From an uncultured Candidatus Saccharibacteria bacterium (GTDB lineage: Bacteria > Patescibacteriota > Saccharimonadia > Saccharimonadales > CAZPPF01), in NCBI GenBank assembly GCA_964588395.1, contig CAZPPF010000004.1, positions 1 through 48,237 on the forward strand: a stretch of DNA of 48,237 nucleotides, in the 5' to 3' direction. The notes under the pieces were generated by a model. The model ran no database searches. It was not told where the DNA came from and saw only the letters and a list, made by a program, of their open reading frames with translations. A program made the position numbers and the translations under genes. This document shows, one piece after another, positions 7,730 to 22,424 of this stretch; positions within the stretch are counted from its first letter, which is position 1; every line of letters starts with the position of its first letter.

Positions 7730-8516
7730 CAGATTCCTTTTCTGGAGCGTGCTTTACAGCGTAGGCTTTTTCAACAATGCCGCTAAATTTATGATAATTC
7801 AAGCTGGCACCACCTACCAAAACACCATCGCACCCTTCAATCTCTAGATAACCACCCACAATTTGATCATCCACGCTACCACCATACAAAACGCGGATTT
7901 TTTTGGCAGCTCTCGAGCCATAGAGATCTTCGACTTGCTTGCGAATAAAAACTAAGGCCTGTTTGACCTCGTCTGGTTTGGCCAAAATACCACTAAAGGT
8001 ACTGATAGCCCAGACGGGTTCATAGGCAATCACCACCTCGCTCACTTCTTGGTCAGTCAAATTGCTTAGTGCACTCATAATTTGGTCATGCAAAACTTGT
8101 TTGGTTTCGCCTGCCCGGCGTTCCACTTGTGTTTCGCCGACGCACAAAATTGGTGTGATCTCGTTTCGAATAGCGGCAGCTACTTTGTCTCGCACCATGT
8201 CTAGGTCTTCGTGGAAGTAAAGACGCCGCTCAGAATGTCCCACAATCACGTAGTGCACCAAATCTCGCAGCATCGTAAAGCTCACCTCGCCCGTAAACGC
8301 TCCTTCGTCCTTCAAATAGGCATTCTGAGCGGCCAAGCGAAACTTCCGCCGGTCAATCTGTAGGCTTAAAGGCTGCAAAGTCAGTAAGCTGGGTGCCAAC
8401 ACCACTTCGATATCTTGGTGAATCTTAATCCGCTCTTCTAAACGGTGCACCAGCAAACTGGCCTGCGAGGTATCGAGGTTCATCTTCCAGTTGCCGACAA
8501 TCAGGGTTCTTTTCAT
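7713..8516 (-). CDS. tpiA: triosephosphate isomerase
   Basis: GNWKMN, GHSERR, AYEPVWAI, YGGSV, LVGGASL. Confidence 0.97.
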   Translation of the reverse strand: MKRTLIVGNWKMNLDTSQASLLVHRLEERIKIHQDIEVVLAPSLLTLQPLSLQIDRRKFRLAAQNAYLKDEGAFTGEVSFTMLRDLVHYVIVGHSERRLYFHEDLDMVRDKVAAAIRNEITPILCVGETQVERRAGETKQVLHDQIMSALSNLTDQEVSEVVIAYEPVWAISTFSGILAKPDEVKQALVFIRKQVEDLYGSRAAKKIRVLYGGSVDDQIVGGYLEIEGCDGVLVGGASLNYHKFSGIVEKAYAVKHAPEKESDGEDS

Positions 8517-8544
8517 GGTTATAACGCTTTTGCTTATTGTATCA

Positions 8545-9831
8545 CTACTTATCCTCTAGAGCCTCCACCCCGGGTAACTTCTTGCCACTCATAAGCTCCA
8601 AGCTAGCACCTCCCCCTGTGGAAACATGATCAAACAATTCCATTTGCCCCTGACTTTCCACAAATCCTACCGTATCGCCACCACCTACCAAACTGTATGG
8701 TCGATGACCAAATTGACCAAGTATCGCTTCTATAATTAGCTCCGTGCCTTGTGTGAATGGACCAACCGGGCCATGCAACGCTGGTGTTTCGGTTACACCC
8801 ATGGTGCCATTCCAGACCACGGTGTTAGCAAGCTGCATACCACCAGCAATAAACGCCCCCGAAAAGGGCCCAATATCGAGCACCATTTCGTCTCCCGCAA
8901 TCACTCCACTCTCGGGTGGTGGCGTTTTTGGATAATTTTCGATCTCGGCAATCACGTGTGCGCTCCAGTCAACAATCCGGGTATGCGCAGTTTTGTCTAT
9001 TTTGCTGGCCACCACGCCATCTTGTGGAATATAAAAGATAAAACGTTCTTTTTTAGCCTTAGACCGGGCCTTTTCGATAATTTCCTCAGCCAGCGGCACA
9101 TCGGCTTTCTCTACCAGACTTTTGCCAGTCTTAATGCCTTCGGCCAAGAGAAAGGTGTTGGCCATTGCTCCACCCACCGCCACAAAATCGGCGATATCTA
9201 TAAAACGCTTCAGCACTTCTAATTTGTCAGAGATTTTGGCACCGCCAATTACCGCCATGAGCGGCCGTTTGGGATTGTCCATGACTCCAGTGATAGTACT
9301 GACTTCTTTTTCGAGCAGCAGCCCAGCCACACTCGGCAGAAACTTGGTTATAGCATCGGTGGAGGCATGGGCACGGTGTACCACTCCAAAACCGTCCTGC
9401 ACAAATATTTCAGCCAAGCTAGCCAATTGCTTGGCAAACTCAGAATCGTTTTTTTCCTCCGCTTCGTGATAACGCAAATTTTCAAGCAACAGTACTTGCC
9501 CAGATTTTAGCCCACGCGCAGCCGTTTCGGCCTCCGGCCCGACACAATCCGAAGCAAATGCTACATCTTTATCTAATAATTTCGAAAGACGTTTGGCGAC
9601 AGGCCTCAGGCTCACCGAAGCATCACGTGGGCCACTTGGACGGCCTAAATGGGAGCAAATCACCAATTTACAGTCTTGCCCCAGCAAAAACTCGATGGTT
9701 GGCAGAGACTGTCTGATTCTATAATCATCAGTAATTTTGCCATCCTTAACGGGCACATTGTAATCGGCCCGCAGCAGTACTGTCTTGCCGTGCAGGTCAA
9801 TATCGCGAATTGTTTTTTTGTTGAACCCCAA
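8545..9831 (-). CDS. pgk: phosphoglycerate kinase
   Basis: RADYNVP, SHLGRP, LLENLRY, HRAHAS, GGAKISDK, GGGDT, STGGGASLE; TTG start. Confidence 0.97.
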   Translation of the reverse strand: MGFNKKTIRDIDLHGKTVLLRADYNVPVKDGKITDDYRIRQSLPTIEFLLGQDCKLVICSHLGRPSGPRDASVSLRPVAKRLSKLLDKDVAFASDCVGPEAETAARGLKSGQVLLLENLRYHEAEEKNDSEFAKQLASLAEIFVQDGFGVVHRAHASTDAITKFLPSVAGLLLEKEVSTITGVMDNPKRPLMAVIGGAKISDKLEVLKRFIDIADFVAVGGAMANTFLLAEGIKTGKSLVEKADVPLAEEIIEKARSKAKKERFIFYIPQDGVVASKIDKTAHTRIVDWSAHVIAEIENYPKTPPPESGVIAGDEMVLDIGPFSGAFIAGGMQLANTVVWNGTMGVTETPALHGPVGPFTQGTELIIEAILGQFGHRPYSLVGGGDTVGFVESQGQMELFDHVSTGGGASLELMSGKKLPGVEALEDK

Positions 9832-9859
9832 GGGAATTGCCCACCCTTTCTAGCGAATA

Positions 9860-11308
9860 CTATAACACGCGAACCTTGATGGTATCAGTGGTACCAACTA
9901 CACCTGGATACATACCCGAAGCCGTAACCACAACTTCCCCTTTGCGCAGTACATTATTTTGCAAGAGCCAGTTGGTCAGTTTGGTGGCTGCTAATTTATC
10001 AGCTGGGCGGACGTAACTTTTAGTTCCATAGACAATAGCGAGTTGTTGGGCCGTTCGATCATCAGAAGTCACCGCAATAATAGGCAGTTTGGGCCTAAAA
10101 CTAGCAATTTGTAGGGCAGTGGCGCCCGATTTTGTCTCGGCTACAATGGCCGTGGCCTGTATGGTGTTGGCCAGTTTAATTATGGCTGAAGATATGGCGG
10201 TCTGGCGACTAGTATCATTGGTAATATCGGCAAAACGAACGTTTTCTATTGGGTTATTTGTCTGGGTGTACAAAATAACCCGCTTCATTACCTTGACTGC
10301 ATCGATTGGGTATTTGCCCGCGGCGGTTTCATCGCTCAGCATCACACAATCGGCACCAATAATCACTGCTGTTGCCACATCCGAAACTTCAGCGCGAGTC
10401 GGTTCTGGTTCTTCCATCATGCTGGCGAGCATTTGCGTGGCTACAATTGTTGGTTTGGCGTAGTGGAGTCCCAGCCCAATAATTTTGCGCTGCATTATGG
10501 GTACAGATTCTGGTGATGTCTCAATAGCCAAATCACCACGGGCCACCATAACTGCATCGGTTTCCTGAACAATTTCTTCAATATTTTCTATGGCCGCAGC
10601 AGTTTCTATCTTGGCAATAATCTTGGCATTACTGCCCAAGTTTTTTAGAAGTGTTCTAAGCTTTGCTATATCACGGGCGTGTTGCACAAAACTAAGAGCC
10701 ACGTAATCTATATCGTGTTCAGAACCAAAGGCCAGATCCCGACGATCTTTAGTAGTAATAATATCGCCGCCAAAATCGGTTTCTGGTAGGTTGATGCCTT
10801 TGCGTTTAATCAATATGCCGTCATTCTCGGCCCGCACATGAACAATGCCGTCTTTGACGCTGGTTATTTCACTGCGTATCTTGCCATCATATATAAATAA
10901 CGGCTGGCCCCGCTTTACCTTTTTACTGAGATCGTATTGTGTGGGGATTAATCCCGAACGCTCGTAATCGGCCTCGTATTTGAGCCCCAGGCTTTGTCCG
11001 GCATTTACGGTAATAACACCGTCAAAATCGCCCAGACGTACTTTGGGTCCTTGTAAATCTTGAATAATTGCTACCGGCTTACCATATTCATGACCAGCCT
11101 TACGAATCCATTTGATCTGACGTTCGCGTTCTTCATGCGTACCATGGCTAAAATTCAGTCGAATACCATTGGCTCCAGCTCGCACCAGTTTAAGTATGGA
11201 GTCATAGCTATCGGTCGAAGGTCCGATAGTAGCAATGATCTTAGTCCGCTTGAATTTTGCCAGCGGTACGTTTGGTACGCGACTTGTAGTATCCATACTT
11301 TTCTTCAT
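9860..11308 (-). CDS. pyk: pyruvate kinase
   Basis: TKIIATIGPS, RLNFSHG, DLQGPKVR, AKIET, MVARGDL, ATQMLASM, PTRAEVSDV. Confidence 0.97.
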   Translation of the reverse strand: MKKSMDTTSRVPNVPLAKFKRTKIIATIGPSTDSYDSILKLVRAGANGIRLNFSHGTHEERERQIKWIRKAGHEYGKPVAIIQDLQGPKVRLGDFDGVITVNAGQSLGLKYEADYERSGLIPTQYDLSKKVKRGQPLFIYDGKIRSEITSVKDGIVHVRAENDGILIKRKGINLPETDFGGDIITTKDRRDLAFGSEHDIDYVALSFVQHARDIAKLRTLLKNLGSNAKIIAKIETAAAIENIEEIVQETDAVMVARGDLAIETSPESVPIMQRKIIGLGLHYAKPTIVATQMLASMMEEPEPTRAEVSDVATAVIIGADCVMLSDETAAGKYPIDAVKVMKRVILYTQTNNPIENVRFADITNDTSRQTAISSAIIKLANTIQATAIVAETKSGATALQIASFRPKLPIIAVTSDDRTAQQLAIVYGTKSYVRPADKLAATKLTNWLLQNNVLRKGEVVVTASGMYPGVVGTTDTIKVRVL

Positions 11309-11418
11309 TTTACCCGCTTATGCTTAGTTTGAACAGGGGTAAATCTAACAAACTTGTTTATTCTAAAACAATTAGTGATCCACCTCTGATCAAAATGTAA
11401 CTGCTTATCTCAAGAAGT

Positions 11419-11913
11419 CTAATAATTCACTACGGTCTGATAAACCAGTACCTGTGGACCATCTTGCGCTGACTTGTTGTAGACATTGTATGGTTTCAAG
11501 GTGCCACTTTTAGCAGATCCAACACACAGTTCTTGATAGTCACCTGCAACTGGCAACGAAATCACCGTCGACTTATACTGATTGGTCAGTTCAACCGTTG
11601 CTGTAGTACCAACACCTTTCGGGTTTACTGCACGCAAAAAATAGCACATAGATTTAATTGCCGTTTTACCGCCAACCACATACGTAAGTTGTCCGCCGGC
11701 AGCAACTTGTGAAACCGTCTGAGTTCCAACTTGATTCACATAATCAGTTGCTGTGCTCACGCCTGAGGTCTGTGCAGCGTTTGTATACGTCAAAAATTGT
11801 GAGTATGGAACTGTTGCCGCATGGCTTTGCATAAGTAAGTAAGAGCCAATCCCGGCGAATAATAAGACAAAAATAATCACAAGCTTGGCATCTAAGAATT
11901 TTGGTTTTTTCAT
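11419..11913 (-). CDS. hypothetical secreted protein
   Basis: N-terminal basic plus hydrophobic signal ending SHA-A; beta-rich mature region with 2 Cys. Confidence 0.7.
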   Translation of the reverse strand: MKKPKFLDAKLVIIFVLLFAGIGSYLLMQSHAATVPYSQFLTYTNAAQTSGVSTATDYVNQVGTQTVSQVAAGGQLTYVVGGKTAIKSMCYFLRAVNPKGVGTTATVELTNQYKSTVISLPVAGDYQELCVGSAKSGTLKPYNVYNKSAQDGPQVLVYQTVVNY

Positions 11914-12004
11914 TTTTCAGTCCTTGGTTATTGGGCCTATAGTAGTCCTGAAATAAAGCTTATGTCAAACTTAAACCGCAGCTATAAAATGATTTCAGAA
12001 GAGT

Positions 12005-12079
<75 letters not shown>

Positions 12080-12141
12080 ATCAGCCACCCTGAAAGAATG
12101 TAATTTAAGACCGCGTCAGTGTAGCATAACAGAGACGAAAT

Positions 12142-12177
12142 GAAAATCCCCACGACTTAGTAGCCGTGGGGACTTCC
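12142..12177 (-). terminator. intrinsic terminator of the LPXTG/DUF11 gene
   Basis: Minus strand TCCCCACGGCT-ACTA-AGTCGTGGGGA followed by TTTTCATTT. Confidence 0.7.
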
Positions 12178-12276
12178 GTTTTAAATTGTTTGTTTGAGAG
12201 CGGTCAGTCATTGCTCTTGAACTTATCCTGATTCTAGCACATTTTGCGCGTTTGCGCTAGTGCTTTTCCACAAGGA

Positions 12277-13566
12277 TTAGCCGCGAGTAAAACGACGACC
12301 AAGGAACAAGCGGTGAGCAACAGCCCCAGCAATAGTTACGGCAGTAAATATGCCGATAACATCGCCAGCACCAGTGTTCGGCAACTGACCCGTTGGGGTA
12401 GTTGGAGTGGTTGGGGTTACAGGTGGTGTAACGGGCTGACACTTGGCTGAATTAGCATTTACGCTAACTGTAGCTGTGTCAGAAGCTGTGGTGTTGTTTC
12501 CAGGTTGGAAAACTGTAGCTGTATTAACCATTGCGTTGTTTCCACAATTCAATTGGTCAGCAGCATCAATCGTAACCTTGAACTTAACGTAAGCAACTGC
12601 ACCAGGATTATAGCTCCCAATGTTGATGCCATTTTTAACCACATCATCACTTCCGGCACCTATTCCACTAGGATGGTTACCGTTTGTGATAGTAGTACTA
12701 CCAGCCACAATATGCTCGTGGGCAGGAAGTTGGTCACGTACAGAAACATCGTTTAAAACTGTGTTTCCAGTGTTCTTAACTGTAAGCAAGTAAGAAACCG
12801 TGTCTCCTGGCTTAGCAGTAATGTTTTTGCTCCAAGCGTCACCTGGGTGAGCTACCTGTTTGGTAATCGTAAGGTTAGGTGCTGGAACGTGAACTTTAAC
12901 TTTTACTGTAACGATACTGGTGTATTGGAAACAGCCCGGAATGATACCATTCGGAGACTGATAACCAATTAGCGCACCACCGTTTACAATGTCATCGCTT
13001 AGTTTCATGCCACTTGGTACAGCGTTTGTATAAGAAACGGCTGAGCCAGGAACATATGAAACGCTGAAGTTACTGCCACCGGCAAAGTCGACAGTGTCGG
13101 CTACTGTACCAGGTTGAGCGTTATCAGCAGAAATGTAAGCGTTGGCCCGCATAGCGGTACCGGTTGCAGTTGGCAAGAAAATTCGAACCTTAGTGTTTTT
13201 TGCAACACCAGGACCATCGAAATTTGTACCATTCAAGGTGTCGGAAGCGTTGTTGTGCACGTAAACGCGCATCAATACTTCTTCGCCATCTTTTACGTTA
13301 ACTTTATCTACAAATCCACCTTGAGTGGTGTTAGTAGCATCTTTGGCGTCAAAGAATGTTCGTTCGTCGCCATAGTTTGGGTTGTCTGTTATTGAGTCGA
13401 ACGTAACGTGGTCAGCAGGATGTGCGACCGTGTAAGTTGGACGATCTGGAGACCAGGCCAATGCTGAACCAACTATACCAAAGGTAAAGATGGTTGCGAG
13501 CATAAGAGCTAAGGTCTTCTTTGGAACCGGAGTTACCGAAAGAATCGCCTTGACTACATCTTTCAT
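12277..13566 (-). CDS. secreted surface protein with DUF11-like Ig domain and LPXTG sortase anchor
   Basis: Signal peptide (ALA-W); DUF11-like LTITKQV...PGDTVSYLLTVKNTG...DQLP; PT-rich linker; LPNTG + TM + RRFTRG; SD AGGAGG. Confidence 0.88.
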   Translation of the reverse strand: MKDVVKAILSVTPVPKKTLALMLATIFTFGIVGSALAWSPDRPTYTVAHPADHVTFDSITDNPNYGDERTFFDAKDATNTTQGGFVDKVNVKDGEEVLMRVYVHNNASDTLNGTNFDGPGVAKNTKVRIFLPTATGTAMRANAYISADNAQPGTVADTVDFAGGSNFSVSYVPGSAVSYTNAVPSGMKLSDDIVNGGALIGYQSPNGIIPGCFQYTSIVTVKVKVHVPAPNLTITKQVAHPGDAWSKNITAKPGDTVSYLLTVKNTGNTVLNDVSVRDQLPAHEHIVAGSTTITNGNHPSGIGAGSDDVVKNGINIGSYNPGAVAYVKFKVTIDAADQLNCGNNAMVNTATVFQPGNNTTASDTATVSVNANSAKCQPVTPPVTPTTPTTPTGQLPNTGAGDVIGIFTAVTIAGAVAHRLFLGRRFTRG

Positions 13567-13624
13567 ATAAACCTCCTAAGAAGTTATTTACATTAATAGA
13601 ACTTGTACTAACCGCTTGTCCTAA

Positions 13625-13637
13625 TTTTTAAAGAACA
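13625..13637 (-). promoter_or_regulatory. boxA-like antitermination motif in the LPXTG gene leader
   Basis: TGTTCTTTAAAAA, close to the rrn boxA consensus TGCTCTTTAACA. Confidence 0.55.
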
Positions 13638-13687
13638 TAGCTGCCAGAGGTTTCCAAAAAAGGAAGCCCACCTCACAGTTGAACGAT

Positions 13688-13716
13688 ATTTTAGCACAAG
13701 TATTTCTGTTTGTCAA
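13688..13716 (-). promoter_or_regulatory. sigma70 promoter for the LPXTG gene
   Basis: TTGACA (13716-13711), 17 nt spacer, TGC-TAAAAT (13693-13688). Confidence 0.8.
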
Positions 13717-13752
13717 TATTATGGTTATGTTTATTTTCTTGCTTGTTCCTAA

Positions 13753-14029
13753 TTGTTAATGAACTTCCAGGCCGAATCATTTCAAATCATAAGGGTGTAA
13801 CAAGGTGTGGAATGCGCGGGAGCGCTGAGCAGCTGTAAGCTACTACTATTCCACACCTGTTTGCGTGACTACGTTGGAGGAAGGAATCGCGTGGAGGCGA
13901 CTCAACTTCTTTTTTCCAACAAAACGCTGGTTTTTCTCGGCTTACCCGAGCGGCTTAACCAGCAACCTGCTGCCAAATTTAATAGTCGTATTGCTACGAC
14001 AAGCACTGGCAGATGCTTTATCCCCCCAT
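13753..14029 (-). ncRNA. structured 3' trailer of the GC-rich cassette (3' arms of long-range helices plus boxA-like motif)
   Basis: Hairpins GTCGTA-GCAA-TACGAC (13985-14000) and CTCGG-GTAAG-CCGAG; 11-bp stem 13803-13813/13848-13858; arms 13865-13875 and 13771-13792 complementary to the leader; GTTCATTAACAA at 13753-13764. Confidence 0.6.
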
Positions 14030-15055
14030 CTATGAGCTCGGCGGAGCTCCAGGGTCACCATCTGCTGGCGGATCCGGCGTCACTGGTGTGGGCGTCGGAG
14101 CCAGAGTTGTCGTCGTTGGAGACGGCGACGGCGCTGGTGCCTGAGTGGTGGTGGTTGGGCAGATTGCAAGCCCGCAAGGTGTGTCGTAGACAGGCGTAGC
14201 CGGTCCTGGATCCGTTCCCACCGGAGTGGTACCTGGTCCTTGTACACCTGACGGAACAGCCGGATTGACGTTGACGTCCTGGGTCGGAACCTTGGGCGGC
14301 AAACACATTGGGCTGTTCGGCGGCAGGCTTGAGTTGTACTGACACACCGGGGTGTTCGGCGGCGTCGTTGTCGACGTCGTTGTCGGCGTCCCTGGCGGGG
14401 AAGTCGACGGAGTTGGCTTGCCACCCACGGGAGTGGGGGGCGTGAGCTGCGGGTTACCGCAAGCCATCCGTACCACGGTCAGCGCTGTTGTTGGGACGTT
14501 GCCGTTCTTGGTGCAAGCAGACGGATTGATGAATACCCATCCGATGTCGCCCTTCTGGCTCTGTCTGGTGCCGGCGGCGACCGTCTTCCCATCGGCGAAC
14601 GAAGTGTTGCCACCCCACTCGCTTTCCACGAGGATTTGGAAACCCTCGATGTTGTTCGGGTCGACGATCTGATCCGCAGTAGCTCCAGGCTGAGCCTCGA
14701 GCAGGTGCTTCTTGACGGCTTGTGCTGCCGGCACGTCACTCTTCAAGAATGCCACGTAGGCGTCCTTGGTCGTGAGGGGCTTGTCGGCAAACTTGCCATC
14801 ACCAGCCTGCTTCGCCGCGGGAAGGTCAAGGTTGAACTTGTCCTCTCCGACAGTGAAGTCGCCAGCTTTGAAGCCCTGTTCCATCAGGAGGTTCGAGACC
14901 GCCTGCTGGTTGTTGCAGTCTGTCGTTGACAGCACGGCCTGGGCCGATTTGCCACCGCTGAACACGTCACCGATGCCCCCAGTTGCGAGGACGACGACGA
15001 CGAAGACAGCAAATGCAGCTGCCATCACACTCCAAATTACAGTGTGTCGCTTCAT
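14030..15055 (-). CDS. hypothetical secreted or membrane-anchored protein with Pro/Thr-rich C-terminus (GC-rich cassette gene 2)
   Basis: Start reassigned to ATG 15055 (MKRHTVIW) behind SD GGAGGTGA; N-terminal hydrophobic helix; several Cys; long P/T-rich tail; 341 aa. Confidence 0.8.
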   Translation of the reverse strand: MKRHTVIWSVMAAAFAVFVVVVLATGGIGDVFSGGKSAQAVLSTTDCNNQQAVSNLLMEQGFKAGDFTVGEDKFNLDLPAAKQAGDGKFADKPLTTKDAYVAFLKSDVPAAQAVKKHLLEAQPGATADQIVDPNNIEGFQILVESEWGGNTSFADGKTVAAGTRQSQKGDIGWVFINPSACTKNGNVPTTALTVVRMACGNPQLTPPTPVGGKPTPSTSPPGTPTTTSTTTPPNTPVCQYNSSLPPNSPMCLPPKVPTQDVNVNPAVPSGVQGPGTTPVGTDPGPATPVYDTPCGLAICPTTTTQAPAPSPSPTTTTLAPTPTPVTPDPPADGDPGAPPSS

Positions 15056-15169
15056 TACTATCACCTCCCTGGGGGTGTCTTGTCGTGTAAAGCGATTTCC
15101 TTGACTGAGTGAACGCAGAGACTGCAAGTCTCTCGTGCGGTTGCACGGCATGCAGCGCGTTCGGGCATG

Positions 15170-15874
15170 TCAACCGACGTCGGTCGTGACCTCGGTCTCA
15201 GTTGTTGTGTTGCAGTCGTCTGAGCAGAACAGCCACTTGCAGATGATCCACACGCCGTAGGCGATCAGGATGACCGGCAGGATGATGAACAGGGCCTGGA
15301 CGAACCAGTTGTTGCCCCATTCGGCATCTCCGTCAGCCCAGTTGAGCACGTCGTCGTAGTAGTTGCTCATGACCGCGAGGGTCACGATGGCTGCAACGGC
15401 GGCGGCGGCGACTGCAACGAAGGTGCAGACTCGTCGACTACTTGTGCTCACTCTCGTGCGCACTCGCTGACGGCGAGTAGGCGGAACTGTCGGATTCACT
15501 GGAAGCACGGCCGTCCGGTCCAGAGGCACCTCGTCTGCCACGGGGACAGGTTCGGCGTCCTGATCGAACACGGCAGCTTCGCCTGCAGGCGGGGTCAGGT
15601 CGACCTCGTCGTCAGACGCACGGGACTCGGGCTCGACTCCAGCAATCCGATTGGCCTGGGCCAAGTCGTGCTCGAGTTCTGCACTCACGTCCTCGTGTTG
15701 CTGCTGAGCTGCACGAATCAGTGCTGCGCCGCTCACGATTCCTTCTTCCAGCACCGCATCGGCACTGGCTCGGGCCGCGAGAAGACGCACACGCTCTTCC
15801 TCGTTCGCAAGACGCAGCTCTCGTGCCTTGGCAATGCCTTCCTCGATGAGCTGGTCGATGTGTTCTGTACTCAT
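15170..15874 (-). CDS. hypothetical membrane protein, coiled-coil/acidic N-terminus and two C-terminal TM helices (GC-rich cassette gene 1)
   Basis: Start reassigned to ATG 15874 (MSTEHIDQ) behind SD GGAGGAGG; 234 aa. Confidence 0.75.
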   Translation of the reverse strand: MSTEHIDQLIEEGIAKARELRLANEEERVRLLAARASADAVLEEGIVSGAALIRAAQQQHEDVSAELEHDLAQANRIAGVEPESRASDDEVDLTPPAGEAAVFDQDAEPVPVADEVPLDRTAVLPVNPTVPPTRRQRVRTRVSTSSRRVCTFVAVAAAAVAAIVTLAVMSNYYDDVLNWADGDAEWGNNWFVQALFIILPVILIAYGVWIICKWLFCSDDCNTTTETEVTTDVG

Positions 15875-16460
15875 TTCTGCTCCTCCTCCCGGTTGGGGGG
15901 TGGAACTGGCGCGGTCCTGGGACCTTGCCAGGCTGTGGGCTATCCCACAACCAAGTCGATTGAGATCGTTTTGCGCCGAAGCAACAAGTCGATGTCTCCA
16001 TCGACTTGTTGTTCGTCCACCCCCATTGGGTGTACTGACACAGCATTGAACCAAAGAGGTTTCTCAGGCTTAATGCTGTGCCCGTAACAAAAACGAAATC
16101 AAAATTAGTGTGTTGAATTTAACGTAGTCACATACTGCCTTGGTAAGCGGAGACGTACTCTGTGAACAGAGGTGCCTCAACGCACGTCAAGTGCAGACCG
16201 CCTACTACTAGCCTTGGGGTACTAACCCCAGAATAACAGGGGTAGCTAGTATTAGATGGCCTGCACTTTTAGTGCCTTACCTACAGCAGTTATGAACTGA
16301 AATGATTCGACTTGTTAATGTACCCGTTGCCTATGAATTTGCCGGTTAACAGATGCAAGAGTCTAAAAAAGCAGCGAGGCGGTGGCCTGGTGCTGCTTCA
16401 TGATCCACCTCTGTTAATGTCCGGCTACGGGGTTATCCCTCACACCCATAAGCTAGGATG
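15875..16460 (-). ncRNA. long (about 585 nt) structured 5' leader / candidate ncRNA
   Basis: Successive stems: 13-bp perfect stem with GAGA loop (15982-16011), GCACAGCATT/AATGCTGTGT stem, long stem 16189-16268, terminator-like hairpin 16365-16398; boxA-like motifs at 16312-16323 and 16411-16422. No credible ORF. Confidence 0.65.
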
Positions 16461-16465
16461 ATCAC

Positions 16466-16494
16466 ATTCTACTACAAAACTACTGTTTTGTCAA
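16466..16494 (-). promoter_or_regulatory. near-consensus sigma70 promoter of the GC-rich cassette
   Basis: TTGACA (16494-16489), 17 nt spacer, TAGAAT (16471-16466). Confidence 0.85.
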
Positions 16495-16522
16495 TAAGCT
16501 TTACCATAATAGTTGTGTAAGC

Positions 16523-18736
16523 TCAAGTTTTTTTAACAAGAGGCTTTGCTTCCTCTGTAGGCTTTGCTAAATGTTCGGGTACTTGCAACTGGCTTTTGGG
16601 AAAACTAAAACCAAAAGTACTGCCTTTGCCTTCCTCGCTATGAAAGATAACTGCTCCACCTTGGGCCACAATGACTTTCTTGGCCATAAATAGACCCAGT
16701 CCGGTACCATCTGGGCGAGCGTGCTGAGCATTACCAGCCCGATAGAACTTGGTAAACAAATGGTGCTGCGCGTCTTTGGGAACCCCAATGCCATCGTCCG
16801 TAACCGTAAACTCTACACTTGTGCCTTTGTCCTCTAGACCAATACGAATATGCCCCCGATTTGCGCCACTCTGCGTGTAGTAGATGGCGTTGTCGGCAAA
16901 GTTCATAATGACCTGACGGGTTTTGGTTTCATCCAGCATGAGCATGGGGAAATCTTTGGGCTTGTCGTAGGTCAGCTCTAGGCCGCGACCTTTTGCCGTC
17001 TCGGTCAATTGGGAAAGTTCGGTCTCGATAACTTCTGCCAGCTGAGTTGGCTTGCGCTCAATTACAAACTTGCCGGTGCGCAGTCTAGACACGTTCAAAA
17101 GGTCCGCAATCAGGTACACCATCCGCTGAGAGCTTACAAACGCCTGATTCAACAGTTTTTGCTGGTTACCGTTAACTTTGCCGGCATCGCCTTCTAACAC
17201 CATGCTGATGTAGCCTTTGACGCTCGTAAGTGGCGTACGCAGCTGGTGTGAGGCCATACTAATGAACTCGTCCTTGGCTTCGTCGAGCGCACGTAGCTTG
17301 TCATTGGTTTGCCGCAACTTGCGCGTAGCAGTATCAACCTTTTCTTGCAGGGTTATGTTGAAGCTTTCGATCTCTTCAAACCGTAGCGCATTTTGAACAG
17401 CGATCGCCAACTCGCTACCCACAATTTCTAAAAATCGAATATCTTGCGTGGTATAGATATTACCGCTCTGTTTGTGACCAAATAGTAGATAGCCAACCAC
17501 GCCTTTTTGAGTGACAAGGCGAACGCTCACTCCTACATTATATTTTTCGAGTGTTTTTTTCTTTTCACCACCTTCAAGTTCGTCGGATACCAAAACGTTT
17601 TTGTTAAACAAACTAACTTCCATGGGGCCAATGGTAATTTCCGGCTCTTTATACTGTTCTCGCCGATAAATTGAGGAATTATCAACCACAATAAAACTGC
17701 CCTTGATGACTTTTAGGTTATCTCCCAAAATCCTAAGACACGACATCATGATGACCTGAAGAGAAATTTGAGTTGTTAGCACTTCGCTGATTTCATTCAG
17801 AACAGCTTGTTCATCATAGGCGTCCCGGTAAAACAACCTGTTGGTCAAACGGTCAAAGAATTGTTTGATAGGTTGGAACGAAAATGCTAGGAAAACACCC
17901 AAAACAACGTATGTGAGCTGCTTGACCCAGCTTTGACTGAAGGAAGCTTGGGTAAAGATGAGTGATGATAACCCAAACAGTAAGGCGCCGTACATTAGAC
18001 CAAGTGTCACGAGCAGCAGAATATAGGCTACCGAACGTGCTACCACAGCCCGGATGTCAAATAATCTCTGGGCGACAATTGCGTAGGTTATAAAAATTGC
18101 AAAGAGTAAGGTGTAGAATGGACTAACTCGAACAAAGAGTGTCGTTTTGGCACTAAGTGTAATGGCAAAGTTTGTCAGGGGTACAATAACCCACAAAACA
18201 ATTGATCCCAGTACTAGCAAACGTAGTTGTTCCTTCTGTTGGCCCCTTGCACGATGGAACTTACCTATCAGGGCTCTGAGCCCAAACGCGATAGTGAGAA
18301 CAGAATTAATAACAAAAAATATGATGACCGGGCCAGGATTGGGGTTGGCCGTACCATTTTTGATAGTGATAGATTGAAACAAAAAGGGAGACTGAGTAAG
18401 TGCAATGACAAACAGCGAGAAAGGAATCATCAACTTTTGTTTGGATGAAAGCTTGGAAATCGGCGTATTAGGGTAGGTTTCGGCGAAAAGATAAAACAAT
18501 GTGTTTTGGATAACGACAAAAGACAGTACTGTTCTGATGGCATATATCGTAGAAGCGTTTTGTGCGACAGATATAGCTAAATAATTAGTGAATGCCCAAG
18601 CTGCCAGTGCAAGTGTCAGGAACATGAAAATCAGGTTTGTGGTGTTGCCTCTTCTTCGGTAGTAGACGCTCAGAGCAATTGCTATTTGGGAAAATACCGC
18701 TAAAATTACCAGTATAGTAAACATCTTGAACTTCAT
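16523..18736 (-). CDS. sensor histidine kinase with N-terminal multi-TM (HisKA_7TM-like) and GAF-like domains
   Basis: About 9 TM segments, GAF-like region (LAIAVQNA), H-box ASHQLRTPL, N-box NFADNAIYY, DDGIG, GTGLGL. Confidence 0.92.
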   Translation of the reverse strand: MKFKMFTILVILAVFSQIAIALSVYYRRRGNTTNLIFMFLTLALAAWAFTNYLAISVAQNASTIYAIRTVLSFVVIQNTLFYLFAETYPNTPISKLSSKQKLMIPFSLFVIALTQSPFLFQSITIKNGTANPNPGPVIIFFVINSVLTIAFGLRALIGKFHRARGQQKEQLRLLVLGSIVLWVIVPLTNFAITLSAKTTLFVRVSPFYTLLFAIFITYAIVAQRLFDIRAVVARSVAYILLLVTLGLMYGALLFGLSSLIFTQASFSQSWVKQLTYVVLGVFLAFSFQPIKQFFDRLTNRLFYRDAYDEQAVLNEISEVLTTQISLQVIMMSCLRILGDNLKVIKGSFIVVDNSSIYRREQYKEPEITIGPMEVSLFNKNVLVSDELEGGEKKKTLEKYNVGVSVRLVTQKGVVGYLLFGHKQSGNIYTTQDIRFLEIVGSELAIAVQNALRFEEIESFNITLQEKVDTATRKLRQTNDKLRALDEAKDEFISMASHQLRTPLTSVKGYISMVLEGDAGKVNGNQQKLLNQAFVSSQRMVYLIADLLNVSRLRTGKFVIERKPTQLAEVIETELSQLTETAKGRGLELTYDKPKDFPMLMLDETKTRQVIMNFADNAIYYTQSGANRGHIRIGLEDKGTSVEFTVTDDGIGVPKDAQHHLFTKFYRAGNAQHARPDGTGLGLFMAKKVIVAQGGAVIFHSEEGKGSTFGFSFPKSQLQVPEHLAKPTEEAKPLVKKT

Positions 18737-18741
18737 TATAT

Positions 18742-19734
18742 ATGGTTAAGCTTAGTGAGCGACAGGTCGGTTTAGAAAAACACGAGTTCATTCGTGCGCT
18801 TTTGGGCGTGGCCAGGCACGCTCCTTCAAGCCACAACACCCAACCTTGGAAGGTCAAAATCCAAAAAAATCAGCTTGTTATAGGCTATGCTCCAAATAGA
18901 CAGCTAACCGTAGGTGATCCAACAAAGCGCGAGCTGTTTATAAGCCTTGGCTGCTTTATTGAGACCCTCGTTCTTGCGGGCAAAGATATGGGATATGAGG
19001 CTACTTATGCGTTTAAAGGTTCTAGTCCAGATAATGTTGCCTTGCTGACTTTCGAAAAAATTGGCACGAGTCGTGAGGAGTTTTGGTTGCCACTCATCAA
19101 GCACCGGCGGTCTAATAGACGTCTGTACCAGGCAAAAGCGATTTCATCGAAACATTTGGCTGAGCTTGAAGTTTTGTCTGATGAAACGGCAAAACTACGA
19201 TTATTTACTGAGCCGAAAGATATAGCAGCCCTAACAAAAGCTACTTACGATGCAACCTATCACGCCATGTCGAATCCGGCATTTCGGGCAGAACTTGCCA
19301 GCTGGGTCAGAAACAACTGGACTCGCCAACCCGACGGCATGCCAGCCTATACGCAAGGAATTCCAGGACCTGTCTCGCTCGTAGCCAAGGTTGTTATCAA
19401 AAAGAACAAGAAAGTGGCCAAAGACCAGGCAAAAAAGGATTCAAAACGAGTGGAGCATTCGGCGGCTATTGGCTTAATTTGTGTAGATAAAGAGACTCCC
19501 GCCGCTTGGATTGAGGCTGGTCGACTGTATCAAAAAGCTTGTCTAACTGCCGAGGCAAACCACATACACACTAGTGCTATTAGTGCAGCGGTCATAGTTC
19601 CGGAGACCGTCAGTAGGATCAAGAAGAAACTGAGTATACATAACGAGCCAATCGTGTTGCTGCGCTTTGGCTTTGTCAAAAAGACTGTTAAACCCACGCC
19701 ACGACTTTCGGTAGACCAGCTACTCAAGGACTAA
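18742..19734 (+). CDS. Acg-like nitroreductase-family (FMN-binding) protein
   Basis: APSSHNTQPW, DPTKRELFISLGCFIE, RRSNRRLY, WIEAGRLYQ, LRFG...PTPR. Confidence 0.85.
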   Translation: MVKLSERQVGLEKHEFIRALLGVARHAPSSHNTQPWKVKIQKNQLVIGYAPNRQLTVGDPTKRELFISLGCFIETLVLAGKDMGYEATYAFKGSSPDNVALLTFEKIGTSREEFWLPLIKHRRSNRRLYQAKAISSKHLAELEVLSDETAKLRLFTEPKDIAALTKATYDATYHAMSNPAFRAELASWVRNNWTRQPDGMPAYTQGIPGPVSLVAKVVIKKNKKVAKDQAKKDSKRVEHSAAIGLICVDKETPAAWIEAGRLYQKACLTAEANHIHTSAISAAVIVPETVSRIKKKLSIHNEPIVLLRFGFVKKTVKPTPRLSVDQLLKD

Positions 19735-19736
19735 GA

Positions 19737-21251
19737 TTACTTTTTGACCCATTTTTGTTTGCCTTTACCATCGAAGTGCAGAGCATGTTCGTTTGGCCAA
19801 AAGATAATCTTGGGCCAGATTTTACTGCCGTAGGTCGCGTAGTTACTGGTATATTCAGTGTTTTCTTCTAAAAGCACTTTGACAATTGCAATCCTAATTT
19901 GACGGCTTAGCAGGCTGGAGGGCGAAACATTTCGTCTAAGCTCAAGGTTAACAATAAGTTTGCTGTTTTGTTTGCGATCCGTCTTGACCTCCATAGTGAA
20001 TTTTCCAGTAAGTGCACGATGAAAGGCCTTTTCAAGCAAAGCTTTACGGATTTCTTCGGCATGAATAATGGCGCCCACTAGTGTGACAGAGAAGTCACTG
20101 CGTTCATACAAATAGACCAAAGGCAGGTTCCATAATGTATTTTCCAGGCCGGTCCGCTTTATATTTGTTATAAAATTCTTGCCAGATTTCTTATATAAAT
20201 TTTGGACCTGATTGAGCGTTAGAATGCCGCCGTTGTCTTTGAGGTCATAGCGAACTAAGGGCAATCCACTATAGCTTGAACAATACAGTTTGCCTGCAGC
20301 TTCTTCGAAGTAGAAAAGTTCTGGGAGATATTGTGTCAGTGTAGGCAGTTTAGTAATGGCTCCGAACATACCTTTAAAAAGTTCTTTGTCTTTCACGGCC
20401 TGTCGCCGTACCATGATTGACGCTGGTGTTTCATGGCTCATGGTGCCCAAATCCACTGTCCCATAATGGTTCAGTGTAGAGGTGTAGATATTGGCTAGCT
20501 TGGCATGTTTAGCAATGTAGTCTCTAAAGTTCTCGCTAAAACCTTCGGCCGAAAACACAACTCCCAAATTATAGTCTGACCAATTCAGACCTTCTTCGAT
20601 ACCAATATCAATAATATCTTTGAGTATGGGCGGGTACGAGCCAATAATGACTTGGTCGAAGTGCGGTCCTAGGCGGCGTACCTCGTTGATAACTTCATGT
20701 TTATTGATACCTGGGGTAATAATACTCAGTGAATAGCCTTTCTCGGCCACCTTTTTGACAGCCTCGTAGGTAAATAAACCACCTATCCAAGCACCCATGG
20801 CAAACGCATCAATGTACAGAGTCGTTTTCTTGTCTATACCAAAATTGCTACGCAAATAGAGCTCAGCGGTCAGTGCATAGTACTCATCTTGTATATCTGT
20901 ACGTGGAAAGTAAAATGGTTCGCCTGTAGAGCCGGATGTTGCGCTGATTACCCAGCTTTTCTCCGGCAACTCTCCATCCCAACATAAATCTTTGAGCGGA
21001 TATTTTCTTAAGTAGTTATCTTTGTCTATGGGCAAAATCTTTTTGAAATCTTGAATAGTTTTAACAGAAGCGGGGTTATATAGATGCCGTTTTAGAAAAT
21101 CTTTATAAGCAGGTACCCTCTGGGACATTTCGTGAAACAGCTCAAGCGCCATGTCTTCCCCGCGCTTAATCCAAAAGCGTTCGGGCTTGGTCTTTAGAGC
21201 GTGTTCGAGCTTTTCGGTATTGCTTAAGATTCGAGGAAGCCGGTCTCTCAT
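19737..21251 (-). CDS. phenylacetate-CoA ligase (PaaK)-like adenylate-forming enzyme
   Basis: VPAYKDF, SATSGSTGEP, YGTVDLG, PLVRYDLKD, ERSDF. Confidence 0.85.
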   Translation of the reverse strand: MRDRLPRILSNTEKLEHALKTKPERFWIKRGEDMALELFHEMSQRVPAYKDFLKRHLYNPASVKTIQDFKKILPIDKDNYLRKYPLKDLCWDGELPEKSWVISATSGSTGEPFYFPRTDIQDEYYALTAELYLRSNFGIDKKTTLYIDAFAMGAWIGGLFTYEAVKKVAEKGYSLSIITPGINKHEVINEVRRLGPHFDQVIIGSYPPILKDIIDIGIEEGLNWSDYNLGVVFSAEGFSENFRDYIAKHAKLANIYTSTLNHYGTVDLGTMSHETPASIMVRRQAVKDKELFKGMFGAITKLPTLTQYLPELFYFEEAAGKLYCSSYSGLPLVRYDLKDNGGILTLNQVQNLYKKSGKNFITNIKRTGLENTLWNLPLVYLYERSDFSVTLVGAIIHAEEIRKALLEKAFHRALTGKFTMEVKTDRKQNSKLIVNLELRRNVSPSSLLSRQIRIAIVKVLLEENTEYTSNYATYGSKIWPKIIFWPNEHALHFDGKGKQKWVKK

Positions 21252-22366
21252 TTTGGACCATCCATCATCCCCTGGTACTTCTTGAGTTCGGCTTGATGGG
21301 TATCGCTTAAGTGCTCTTTGTCAATTTTTTCATCCAAAGAAATCAGTATTCGTCCATCTTTTATTTTTTCGCCGAGAAGAATTTTGCGAGTAACATACGC
21401 CAGTGTTATTCCGGACAATGCTGCAGCGCCGCCGAGTTGTGGCCAACTTGGCAAACTTTTGCCCACTTCAGCGAGCGACTGATACATCCGAAGTGGAACA
21501 TTCTCTGCTCCTACAAAATAGCGCCCTATCATCATGCCGAGTTCAGGCCTTGATAGGGTTTCGGATTTAATCTTGGCCAGCACTTCATCTGGTATTCGGC
21601 CATTGAAGATTGCTGTTTTGGGATCTAAGTCATAACGATCTATGTCAATCAGGGCATTATCACCATCATCAGCTGCCATGATGACTGGTAGTTTTCGGTC
21701 TCGAGCGGCTTCGCGCAGCAATATCTTCATCCGCAGTTCGTCCATTTCATCAACGATGACATCTGGTTTATGCGTATCCAAAATTTCTGGTAAGTTTGTT
21801 TCGTTTAAACCTCTAAAATAACCAACAACCTCTATAAACGGATCAATTTCCCAGACCTTTCTCGAGATTGCCTCCACTTTGTGAAGACCAACATGGTGGT
21901 ACGGTGAGCGAATCCTATTAAGATTACTCGGTTCAATTACGTCCATGTCTACTAAAACCAGCTTTTGGCCAATACCTTGCGACACGAGAGCTTCAACCAC
22001 ATTACTGCCGACGCTCATGCCCACAATAACAACAGTCGCACCGTATAATTTGTTCTGCTCGTCAGCGGTTATCAAGTTACGATTGCGTGACGTTCTGAGG
22101 CTTCGGAAGGCTTCAACAGGAGGAAAATGTACAACTTTATTGAGCCACGGGTAGTATACCCACTGTCCCCAGTCATTAGGGTGGTCAGCTGTAATTTCAG
22201 TGCCGAAGCCACGCACCTCATCCTTGGTCTTTGTATCCTTTTTTTCGGGGTGGCGAATGTCAAAAAGCTCATCTATTGCGAGTTCTATAGTGTCGTCAAC
22301 AATCAGCTGCGGGTTTTCTTGCTTGAGTGAGTCTAGGTCGTTATGTGTATAGAGTATGGGTTTCAT
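21248..22366 (-). CDS. ThiF-family adenylyltransferase (Rv1355c N-terminal-like)
   Basis: WVYYPW, RNRNLIT..EQ, VGMSVGS, DMDVIEPSNLNR, DEMD...K...R, WPQLGG; overlaps the next gene (ATGA). Confidence 0.88.
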   Translation of the reverse strand: MKPILYTHNDLDSLKQENPQLIVDDTIELAIDELFDIRHPEKKDTKTKDEVRGFGTEITADHPNDWGQWVYYPWLNKVVHFPPVEAFRSLRTSRNRNLITADEQNKLYGATVVIVGMSVGSNVVEALVSQGIGQKLVLVDMDVIEPSNLNRIRSPYHHVGLHKVEAISRKVWEIDPFIEVVGYFRGLNETNLPEILDTHKPDVIVDEMDELRMKILLREAARDRKLPVIMAADDGDNALIDIDRYDLDPKTAIFNGRIPDEVLAKIKSETLSRPELGMMIGRYFVGAENVPLRMYQSLAEVGKSLPSWPQLGGAAALSGITLAYVTRKILLGEKIKDGRILISLDEKIDKEHLSDTHQAELKKYQGMMDGPK

Positions 22367-22424
22367 GCACCAAATACTTCGGTTTTACTGGTATCCATAT
22401 TATGATAACAAAGAGCAACCTCAA

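Follow-up and report, generated by a model that had tools for sequence, protein, structure and literature searches.

Conserved RNA helix with strands 2.5 kb apart around a surface-protein operon of two genes in a tiny soil bacterium

Described systems and the organization of the locus

In the motif-plus-stem layout found around 16S rRNA, the established role of the arrangement is processing. Long-range mRNA pairing that is cut by RNase III is known from icaR (S. aureus) and hbs (B. subtilis), and in icaR the pairing covers the ribosome-binding site. The nutL-N leader of phage lambda carries an RNase III site. At the DNA level, the invertible segments Hin, Gin, and Cin have inverted repeats of about 25 bp around 1–4 kb of surface-protein genes. 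According to the available text of a recent preprint, long-range pairing in the yabJ-spoVG mRNA is a possible RNase III substrate (bioRxiv 10.64898/2026.09.18.752551). A "delivery" model for 5′ strands held by boxA has been published for rrn (PMC8632103, available text). BoxA sites of the suhB type are described as lying near the start codon and repressing translation or promoting Rho termination, and an RNA loop between boxA and the polymerase has been proposed for them (Baniulyte et al., 2017, PMC5725501, available text).

The window analyzed here is a stretch of 48,237 nucleotides from an uncultured Candidatus Saccharibacteria bacterium (GCA_964588395.1, contig CAZPPF010000004.1). The locus and its neighbors are organized as follows, in the direction of transcription.

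16523–18736, minus strand: upstream neighbor, histidine kinase (Pfam 7TM, GAF, HisKA, and HATPase domains)
16466–16494, minus strand: promoter P1, TTGACA-17-TAGAAT (11/12 consensus matches; aligned and conserved in related loci)
16324–16460, minus strand: 5′ leader domain (from sequence; conserved in 18–44 loci)
within 16324–16460, minus strand: conserved TTATGGGTG...AGAGGTGGA block of the leader domain
about 16422–16411, minus strand: boxA-like GGACATTAACAG within the leader domain
16396–16365, minus strand: terminator-like hairpin GCAGC...GCTGC with a T-run, within the leader domain
16312–16323, minus strand: boxA-like motif 1, GTACATTAACAA, directly 5′ of the 5′ arm and within the 47-nt element A1/R1
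16290–16311, minus strand: 5′ arm of the closing helix (covariation over 38 loci)
16179–16278, minus strand: local hairpin GCAGGCCATCTAATACTAGC...GCTAGTAGTAGGCGGTCTGC of the long 5′ UTR (inverted repeat I1; aligned in related loci; cofold-predicted)
16121–16131, minus strand: 5′ strand of nested helix 2, GTGACTACGTT (perfect pairing with AACGTAGTCAC)
15170–15874, minus strand: gene 1, 234 aa (translation; strong Shine-Dalgarno site)
14030–15055, minus strand: gene 2, 341 aa (translation; strong Shine-Dalgarno site)
13865–13875, minus strand: 3′ strand of nested helix 2, AACGTAGTCAC (perfect 11-bp pairing with GTGACTACGTT)
13803–13858, minus strand: local hairpin AGGTGTGGAAT...ATTCCACACCT of the 3′ trailer (predicted in the window cofold)
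13771–13792, minus strand: 3′ arm of the closing helix (pairing and covariation)
13753–13764, minus strand: boxA-like motif 2, GTTCATTAACAA, 6 nt behind the 3′ arm
13688–13716, minus strand: promoter P2, TTGACA-17-TAAAAT with a TG extension (11/12 consensus matches)
13625–13636, minus strand: boxA-like motif 3, GTTCTTTAAAAA, in the downstream gene's leader, behind P2
12277–13566, minus strand: downstream neighbor, DUF11-repeat surface protein (Pfam and NCBIfam), outside any enclosing helix

An initial annotation had described this cassette as built like a pre-rRNA; the promoter that it placed at 16494–16466 (11 of 12 consensus positions) and its boxA-like motifs at 16323–16312 and 13764–13753 are present. 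The two enclosed ORFs are conserved as proteins, and the loop holds no rRNA (Rfam). A search with Rfam 15 covariance models returned tRNAs and one tmRNA only for the window, and nothing credible at E ≤ 5 for 13400–16700. No Rfam family matched the 5′ leader domain, whose RNAalifold consensus is weak (6 pairs, 3 with double changes).

As in rrn operons, a TTAACAA-type motif stands directly next to the 5′ strand of a long helix (at least 22 bp) whose partner lies kilobases downstream, the 3′ strand is followed by another motif copy in the manner of a spacer boxA, and the helices are nested; the order's own 16S operons, as seen in relatives, show the same motif-plus-stem layout. Unlike in rrn, the loop contains translated protein genes with Shine-Dalgarno sites, and pairing here involves only 3 nt of the motif, as against its full length in the relatives' 16S stems. 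A boxA-like RNA motif in the 5′ UTR of a protein gene is shared with BoxA-regulated suhB and others, but a distal partner arm, a closing helix, and a second motif at the 3′ end are unmentioned in the available text of that work (PMC5725501), and about 440 nt separate motif 1 from the first start codon. The nutL-N leader of lambda, as presented in the same text (PMC5725501), also has a boxA leader before a protein gene with a structured region between site and start codon, but its structures are local hairpins that form no kilobase-range pairing with the 3′ end. The initial statement that no described system has this layout around protein genes needs narrowing: boxA before protein genes has been described (PMC5725501, available text), while our literature search found no paper on a boxA-flanked, kilobase-range closing helix around protein genes.

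As in icaR, hbs, and, from the preprint text at hand, yabJ-spoVG, remote segments of one mRNA pair with each other, in a duplex whose actual or potential cleavage by RNase III decides the fate of the transcript. Set beside these, the locus described here has covariation-backed conservation across dozens of species. Pairing over a Shine-Dalgarno site of the icaR type was rejected, given the positions of the 5′ arm's end (16290) and of the first start codon (15874). To our knowledge, no boxA, nested second helix, or link to base composition is known for icaR, hbs, or yabJ-spoVG.

The closing helix and the nested helix

The 22-nt arms (16311–16290 and 13792–13771) pair as initially annotated, with 19 Watson-Crick pairs, two G.U pairs, and one mismatch. 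The closing helix comprises about 24 bp with one conserved internal mismatch, and its 5′ arm is AU-rich. Judged by this genome alone, the arms are barely, or not clearly, beyond chance: among 3183 motif-adjacent 22-mers scanned, 21 of 22 positions paired twice (one case in a coding region) and once in the reversed-sequence control. Cofolding of both ends gave an interaction of −28.5 kcal/mol vs. −3.4 ± 2.4 for 60 dinucleotide shuffles, and z-scores at the four loci tested were −8.5 to −12.1.

Comparison of homologous loci provides what we regard as decisive evidence for the closing helix. Among 44 loci examined, six were dropped (four cut by contig ends, two unresolved); in the 38 resolvable loci a complementary 3′ arm was present 1.7–3.5 kb downstream of the 5′ element. 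Paired positions made up 93.1% in these loci vs. 83.1 ± 0.7% (maximum 86.0%) in 2000 permutations of 3′ arms among loci, a test that overstates independence because the loci are related. The pairing cells included 743 Watson-Crick, 71 G.U, 25 A.C, and 35 other combinations; 3′ arms were located by maximizing Watson-Crick plus G.U pairs, which may slightly favor G.U outside the invariant core. Within core positions 1–15, G.U outnumbered A.C by 55 to 4 (tally from the per-position table), which places the pairing in RNA, on the coding strand. At least two Watson-Crick pair types occur at each of positions 4, 5, 12, 13, 18, 20, and 21, and double compensatory changes across loci are numerous. Arms that failed to be conserved or to covary in homologous loci had been named initially as grounds for abandoning the pre-rRNA-like interpretation; the arms, an RNA helix on the transcribed strand, are conserved and do covary in these 38 species-level loci.

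The nested 11-bp helix (16131–16121 with 13875–13865) is likewise perfectly paired. A perfect complement of at least 11 nt between the inner 5′ and inner 3′ regions was found in 21 of 38 loci, vs. none of 38 in each of two controls. The GTGACTAC-type motif and its complement are both present in 13 of the 38. Where the nested sequences pair, their extensions change yet stay complementary (CGTT/AACG, CATT/AATG, CTG/CAG, CGAAA/TTTCG, and others), the structure being conserved as its sequence changes. As helix 2 is nested within the closing helix, the whole coding region would form a closed loop. The third helix suggested initially (16287–16279 with 13840–13832) did not hold up: it can be drawn with two G.U pairs, is absent from the minimum-energy cofold, and is not conserved, no counterpart being seen by eye in six related loci. 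The trailer hairpin is also cofold-predicted, with a changed sequence, in loci L013, L048, and L066. The covariation shows selection on the coding strand for the predicted long-range RNA helices. No long-range pairing was detected around the gene of the DUF11 neighbor (best 15.7/18 vs. 15.6 in controls; 28 loci), and no second framed unit was found elsewhere in this genome.

The arms could instead be inverted repeats of an invertible, phase-variable DNA segment flipped by a site-specific recombinase. Repeats of 22–25 bp around 1.7–3.5 kb of surface-protein genes, with the promoter outside, do recall the Hin/Gin type, and in Hin, Gin, and Cin, too, inverted repeats flank surface-protein genes over a kilobase range. 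We nevertheless consider such a segment very improbable: unlike in those systems, mismatches are strand-asymmetric, being tolerated as G.U on one strand (the 55 vs. 4 of the core), and another complementary pair is nested inside the first. No recombinase family was revealed when 14 ORFs (4830–23546) were scanned with Pfam. Gene 2 lies on the leader's strand in 28/28 loops and in 22/22 genomes that have both gene 2 and the 5′ element; the assemblies are consensus sequences, so that rare flips could escape notice in this single orientation. The candidate was rejected on the lack of a nearby recombinase and the one orientation in assemblies.

A mobile element is another DNA-level explanation: the arms would be the terminal inverted repeats of a non-autonomous unit, and TTAACAA its duplicated target site. 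The repeat GTACATTAACAA / GTTCATTAACAA just outside the inverted arms in the window and the foreign-looking GC content of the interior are compatible with it, but it has hardly any probability in our judgment. The unit is present as a single copy in the genome and has the same neighbors in dozens of species, the histidine kinase homolog's gene end being directly upstream in about 24 related loci and the DUF11 surface protein downstream in 40. The spacing of the 3′ motif from the arm is variable (11–61 nt across loci), the TTAACAA core alone being shared. Pfam scans of ORFs between 4830 and 23546 gave no transposase, and phage and plasmid collections contained no match to the unit. Transposon ends, another initially named objection, were thus rejected, as was a transposon or MITE in general, on the single copy, the conserved synteny, the variable 3′ spacing, and the lack of a transposase in these scans. 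Within the order, the 5′ element model R1 gave matches in 35 of 151 genomes, at roughly one hit each. Its four matches among 151 genomes of a phylum sample were the window's own genome, two same-order genomes, and one borderline case (E = 0.007) outside the order.

The enclosed genes and their base composition

The product of gene 1 is helical in its N-terminal part and contains two hydrophobic segments; it had no Pfam or NCBIfam match above cut-off, and homologs were detected by BLASTP in 9 of 38 loops. Gene 2 is the core cargo of the frame and was found in 28 of 38 loops (family alignment A2). Its product is anchored in the membrane by its N-terminus and has a globular domain that ends with CGNP, as well as a tail rich in Pro and Thr. 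The AlphaFold model reached pLDDT >90 for about residues 50–210, with no PDB fold match at E ≤ 0.001. This fast-evolving surface protein family belongs to ultrasmall bacteria, and the mode of its expression likely bears on their dealings with surroundings or hosts.

The coding core has a GC content of 56–65% in the window vs. 38–51% in the flanks. Some loci are plain, that is, they have the homologous gene at the same position without leader, arms, and motif. In framed loci (n = 34) the GC content of gene 2 was 0.11–0.26 above that of its neighbor, whereas in plain loci (n = 12) the difference was −0.02 to +0.06, with no overlap. This contrast among homologous genes at the same position is new and shows that the helices are tied to a GC-rich cargo. 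A rough gene 2 tree, with weak support at many nodes, gives about six changes between the framed and plain states, and the two-state contrast amounts to an experiment of nature, of a rare kind, on the determinants of a gene's base composition. The 12 plain loci also show that production of the proteins is possible without a frame, which counts against the rRNA-like reading favored below, as does a weak terminator-like hairpin (14000–13985) between gene 2 and the 3′ arm.

Frequent recombination can raise GC content through GC-biased gene conversion. The frame might act mainly in DNA, as homology anchors that exchange a hypervariable surface-protein cassette between lineages, with RNA pairing secondary. 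The gene 2 tree departs from genome families (members of family f32, for example, fall in five clades), gene 2 diverges far faster than the DUF11 neighbor (mean normalized score 0.04 vs. 0.26; the two divergences are weakly correlated, rho 0.12), and GC enrichment is confined to the framed cargo. Anchors of this kind, however, need neither mutual complementarity nor a preference for G.U over A.C (55 vs. 4) nor a second nested helix, and plain loci have conserved flanking genes too, yet normal GC content. We regard the anchor explanation as improbable.

Flanking motifs and possible maturation of the transcript

In 34 of 38 loci the 3′ arm is followed, at no more than 90 nt, by a TT[AT]A[AC]AA motif, which was present in 42 of 2007 background windows. 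The 16S gene is absent from this assembly; the motif was compared with the 16S leaders of six relatives. These have [CT]TTAA[AC]AA[TC]T at the stem start (one with TTGAAAAT), which comes very close to GTTCATTAACAATTAGG of this locus. In five of the six, the 5′ strand of the 16S stem opens with a motif of the TTAA[AC]AA type, and the sixth has TTGAAAA; stem scores were 36–40 of 40 vs. 29–32 in controls. A motif unlike the genome's rrn boxA had also been named initially as an objection; in the relatives, the motif that opens 16S processing stems resembles the one seen here, as a matter of similarity, and the label "boxA" is to be read in the same sense. The comparison shows that the predicted helices are tied to TTAACAA motifs resembling those of the relatives' 16S stems. 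As the motif itself is base-paired in the relatives' rrn stems, its role may be that of a stem or recognition element and not of a NusB/E site.

Both nusB and rnc are present in this genome. A search of the assembly, which is 93.7% complete, did not detect the RNA-binding domain of Rho; boxA antitermination may thus lack its classical target here.

On balance, though with considerable doubt, we favor reading the locus as an mRNA whose RNA frame borrows the logic of the order's rRNA operons. Transcription would start at P1 and proceed through the structured leader to the TTAACAA motif, which abuts the AU-rich 5′ arm; the cargo would follow (gene 2, usually with gene 1 ahead) and then, after 1.7–3.5 kb, the 3′ arm and the second TTAACAA motif. 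By analogy with rrn, NusB/NusE and partners may assemble on the motif and tether the 5′ arm to the polymerase up to the emergence of the 3′ arm, and RNase III would then cut the closing helix. The product would be a discrete mRNA, long-lived owing to its paired ends and to a GC-rich body with few AU-rich nuclease sites. Such a body may also prevent mispairing of the AU-rich 5′ arm before its partner is made.

The helices might also be real RNA structure and no RNase III/Nus device, the closed loop itself being the function. It might protect the ends from exonucleases without cleavage, shield the cargo from transcription running on into the DUF11 gene, or control translation or RNA localization via some protein that recognizes TTAACAA and the helix base. 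The same structural evidence (arm covariation, the nested helix) fits a closed-loop function, as do the motif on both sides of the helix base, the failure to find Rho, and the long conserved leader and trailer hairpins, which suggest additional ligands. On the other hand, RNase III, whose gene rnc is present, would naturally act on a helix of about 24 bp, and the relatives' 16S rRNA is flanked by the same motif-plus-stem layout in its processing role. A function of the loop alone seems to us rather unlikely, though a serious competitor.

The rRNA-like reading can be taken further, to an mRNA matured via the rRNA pathway itself. A Nus-modified polymerase would outrun the ribosomes, RNase III would excise the message, and a long-lived, end-paired (possibly circularized) molecule would result. 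The GC-rich coding sequence would then be an adaptation forced by the pathway, protecting ribosome-free RNA and avoiding mispairing with the AU-rich arm, so that the architecture would have dictated the base composition of the enclosed genes repeatedly in evolution. We hold this extension to be doubtful; in a bolder version still, the excised GC-rich message might be used outside the cell that makes it. If maturation by an rRNA-like route holds, bacteria can send a protein-coding message via a route thought to be reserved for ribosomal RNA, and the boxA/Nus "delivery" model for long-range helices gains a test case in nature outside the ribosomal RNAs, one in which mutations would not kill the cell.

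Beyond the frame, roughly half of the loci have a P2-like promoter behind the unit, and counterparts of boxA-like motif 3 were observed in loci L013, L014, and L016.

Layout of the locus

The cassette described in the initial annotation was confirmed and its layout extended, and the following features were recognised on the minus strand.

18736-16523, minus strand: histidine kinase gene, upstream neighbour
16494-16466, minus strand: near-consensus promoter, after the kinase gene
between promoter and 5' motif, minus strand: leader of ~140 nt with a terminator-like hairpin (from sequence)
16323-16312, minus strand: boxA-like motif GTACATTAACAA, adjoining the 5' arm
16311-16290, minus strand: 5' arm, 22 nt, pairing with the 3' arm
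between 5' arm and first ORF, minus strand: untranslated, structured RNA over the next 415 nt
15874-15170, minus strand: ORF 1 (gene 1), strong ribosome-binding site
15055-14030, minus strand: ORF 2 (gene 2), strong ribosome-binding site
between gene 2 and 3' arm, minus strand: trailer, 240 nt
13792-13771, minus strand: complementary 3' arm
13764-13753, minus strand: boxA-like motif GTTCATTAACAA, behind the 3' arm
13716-13688, minus strand: second near-consensus promoter
13636-13625, minus strand: third related motif, before the DUF11 gene
13566-12277, minus strand: DUF11-repeat surface protein gene, last of the series

The GC content of the coding core is 56-65%, compared with 45.8% for the whole genome. 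No Rfam family matched the cassette. Its neighbours are constant over dozens of species, with the DUF11 gene following it in 40 loci and the kinase preceding it in about 24. The window opens with a complete tmRNA gene (1-411, minus strand); a tRNA-Glu gene (12005-12079) is found just behind the DUF11 gene, and tRNA-Lys and tRNA-Arg genes further on. Divergent from the kinase (18742-22366) are a weak nitroreductase-family match, a 504-aa ORF without a family and a ThiF-family gene, three genes that may together form a small cluster for peptide modification.

The first ~140 nt of the transcript (16324-16460, minus strand) and the homologous leaders of related loci (L013-L090) make up a conserved domain. 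It starts with CATCCTAGCTTATGGGTGTGAGG, continues with a boxA-like GGAC(A/G)TTAACAG, AGGTGGA and the terminator-like hairpin, and ends with the segment ATTCATAGG, which covaries with TTATGGGT; a second leader type (CATCGTTTTGCGGCG...) is present in some clades. The domain had no match in Rfam, and its consensus fold comprised 6 weak pairs only. It may act in attenuation, or bind a ligand or a protein. A leader peptide of 12 codons over the terminator-like hairpin, noticed by eye in the window, was rejected, as the start codon is absent in L013, L048, L049, and L050.

The long-range helix

We consider the existence of a long-range RNA frame around the two genes very probable. The previously reported arm pairing (19 Watson-Crick pairs, 2 G.U, and 1 mismatch) was reproduced, as was the perfect pairing of the nested 11-bp helix (16131-16121 with 13875-13865). 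When 3183 motif-adjacent 22-mers of the genome were each compared with the next 6 kb, 21 of 22 pairs were reached twice, at this locus and in one coding-region match, and once in the reversed-sequence control; the arms are thus only just beyond chance from this genome alone. Cofolding against shuffled controls, as had been proposed, gave an interaction energy of -28.5 kcal/mol for the cassette and -3.4 +/- 2.4 for 60 dinucleotide shuffles. Neither BLAST of the cassette nor a motif/arm scan revealed further units in this genome: BLAST returned the cassette itself, a paralogous kinase end on contig C32, and a 17-nt match on contig C33, and two other motif/arm candidates (C8 and C33) were rejected as lying inside coding sequence.

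The comparison among relatives provides the decisive evidence for the frame. A DNA search retrieved loci that are alike at both ends of the unit, unlike in the middle, and arranged in a common layout; one unpublished genome (G034) among the 41 counted in this search has a match to the kinase end only and underlies none of the claims made here. Of 151 genomes of the same order, 35 were matched by a model of the 47-nt 5' element (A1/R1), at about one site in each; in a phylum sample of 151 genomes the model matched the genome itself, two of the same order, and one borderline case outside the order (E=0.007). After four of 44 examined loci were dropped because they were cut by contig ends, and two because they were unresolvable, 38 were kept, with arm pairs all distinct (two further fetched loci without the 5' core were left out). 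The complement of the 5' arm lies 1.7-3.5 kb downstream in these 38 loci. The proportion of paired cells was 93.1% (helix positions -2 to 21, without the conserved mismatch at 16) vs 83.1 +/- 0.7%, maximum 86.0%, when 3' arms were permuted among loci (2000 trials), figures obtained with loci that are related to one another and with arms located by maximising pairs. At least two Watson-Crick pair types occur at seven helix positions, and in some loci several positions have changed together with complementarity kept, for example with GCCAAATCATGAGAG and AAGCCAGACTAATGACAG replacing GTCGAATCATTTCAG. The non-Watson-Crick cells comprise 71 G.U vs 25 A.C, and 55 vs 4 at core positions 1-15 (tallied from the per-position table). 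This excess of G.U is a strand bias foreign to a DNA repeat; the pairing under selection is therefore that of the coding-sense RNA. The earlier proposal of RNA pairing in an rrn-like layout is strongly supported by the arm covariation and G.U excess over 38 loci.

To assess the nested helix, the segment 32-520 nt downstream of the start of the 5' arm (inner 5' region) was compared with the 320 nt that precede the 3' arm (inner 3' region). Perfect complementarity over at least 11 nt was found for 21 of 38 loci, and for none of the 38 in either of two controls; at a threshold of at least 10 nt, the numbers were 25 loci and, in the controls, 2 and 4. The GTGACTAC-type motif and its complement are both present in 13/38 loci, and their extensions co-vary and are complementary wherever the sequences pair; in other clades the nested helix is of unrelated sequence. 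The third helix, suggested before as a possibility, is not conserved and had no counterpart in six related loci examined by eye. No long-range helix was detected around the adjacent DUF11 gene (15.7/18 vs 15.6/18 in controls, 28 loci). In one related locus (L099, genome G046) an inserted hairpin of ~30 nt separates the TTAACAA motif from the 5' arm, and the arms pair perfectly over 17 nt; motif and arm are therefore separable, with the arms retained.

The initial annotation had also considered that the arms could be transposon terminal repeats with target duplications. We rejected this identity: the unit is single-copy, it has the same neighbours in dozens of species, and no transposase family is nearby (neither transposase nor recombinase families turned up when the 14 ORFs scanned, between 4830 and 23546, were compared with Pfam). 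The 3' motif stands at a variable distance from the arm (11-61 nt), and the distance to the next promoter varies too, so the motif is not a duplicated target site and not a fixed part of a promoter. An invertible segment was likewise rejected, gene 2 lying on the leader's strand in 28/28 loops and 22/22 genomes. The unit had no match in phage and plasmid collections. Contigs of four DNA runs over the locus, in which rare variants are invisible, contained no joint at the arms; their sole joint, in one of the runs, skips 179 nt within the kinase end.

The motif and ribosomal RNA leaders

The motif TT[AT]A[AC]AA was found at most 90 nt behind the 3' arm in 34 of 38 loci, compared with 42 of 2007 background windows. 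The window's assembly has no 16S gene; in six relatives a stem encloses this gene, with scores of 36-40 out of 40 (controls 29-32). The 5' strand of the stem opens with CGTTAAAAA, TTTAACAATT, ATTAACAATT, or TTTAAAAGTT, and in one genome with TTGAAAATT; two 23S leaders have TTAACAATCT and ATTTAAAAATTTAGG. Like these 16S genes, the cassette has a motif of this type right at the 5' strand of a helix that spans kilobases, and by similarity this motif appears to be the rrn leader motif of the order, matched in position.

In a published model of rrn (PMC8632103, section 16), the antitermination complex retains the leader element at the polymerase, so that the 5' strand is "delivered" to the complement lying downstream. 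The occurrence of boxA ahead of protein genes has already been described, with no distal partner mentioned in the relevant part of that report (PMC5725501). The window's genome contains nusB and rnc; the Rho RNA-binding domain was not found in the 93.7%-complete assembly. By analogy with rrn, it is plausible that Nus factors would load on the cassette RNA, that RNase III would excise it, and that its ends would be protected or circles formed. We give the full mechanistic reading slightly better than even chances.

Two relatives (L068 in G055, L069 in G191) have 16S and 23S genes on one strand ~1.8-2 kb apart, with two opposite-strand tRNA genes between them. Each rRNA gene there has its own motif-bearing leader, so they are probably separate transcription units. 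Unusually long 16S genes were observed in L124 of G051 (2687 nt from end motif to end motif) and in L068 of G055 (1681 nt), which suggests insertions or introns.

Framed and plain states of the gene 2 locus

Two states of the gene 2 locus were discovered, one framed by arms, motif, and long leader, the other plain. When 401 genomes of the order were searched with a gene 2 profile, 58 gave a match. Among 27 further loci fetched, 11 were framed, 12 plain, and 4 too truncated to call; for two of the 11 framed loci, and for one locus with Ns in the 5' arm region, recognition relied on the 3' arm alone. In the plain layout the kinase is followed by a promoter, a short leader, gene 2, and directly thereafter the DUF11 gene; the 12 plain loci are without long leader, arms, and motif. 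In 34 framed loci the GC content of gene 2 is 0.11-0.26 above that of the downstream neighbour region, with GC3 of 0.52-0.87. For the 12 plain loci the corresponding values are -0.02 to +0.06, a range that does not overlap that of the framed loci, and GC3 is 0.25-0.54. A FastTree of 55 gene 2 sequences, rough and with many weakly supported nodes, required about 6 state changes (shuffled labels: mean 11, minimum 7). The GC contrast and the repeated changes of state indicate that the frame and the GC-rich composition travel together repeatedly. The GC-richness might result from selection on a ribosome-free, long-lived RNA, from a need to avoid mispairing with the AU-rich arm, or from a recombination-driven GC bias.

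The constant cargo is gene 2, which BLASTP detected in 28 of the 38 loops and which is the only gene of the short ones. Its product starts with a membrane anchor or in the manner of a lipoprotein, continues into a globular domain with CGNP at its end, and finishes in a tail rich in Pro and Thr. The fold of the globular domain was predicted with high confidence; Foldseek against PDB gave no match at E<=0.001. For the cargo proteins, nothing scored above cut-off in Pfam and NCBIfam, the ESM Atlas search returned no usable match, and none of 15 database relatives has an informative name. An origin of the GC-rich cargo in another phylum was considered; a search of genome contigs with protein P0002 alone found no relative. 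The gene 1 product is a small membrane protein, more divergent than that of gene 2. The gene 2 tree contains several deep types that do not follow genome families, and gene 2 diverges far faster than its neighbours, a pattern that would fit exchange, or diversifying selection, of a surface protein. The correlation of gene 2 with DUF11 divergence is weak (rho 0.12) and uninformative because gene 2 is near saturation. Four gene 2 matches (in G137, G014, G118, and G032) are each interrupted by a single in-frame stop codon, TAG or TAA, and could represent pseudogenes, two ORFs side by side, or errors of sequencing.
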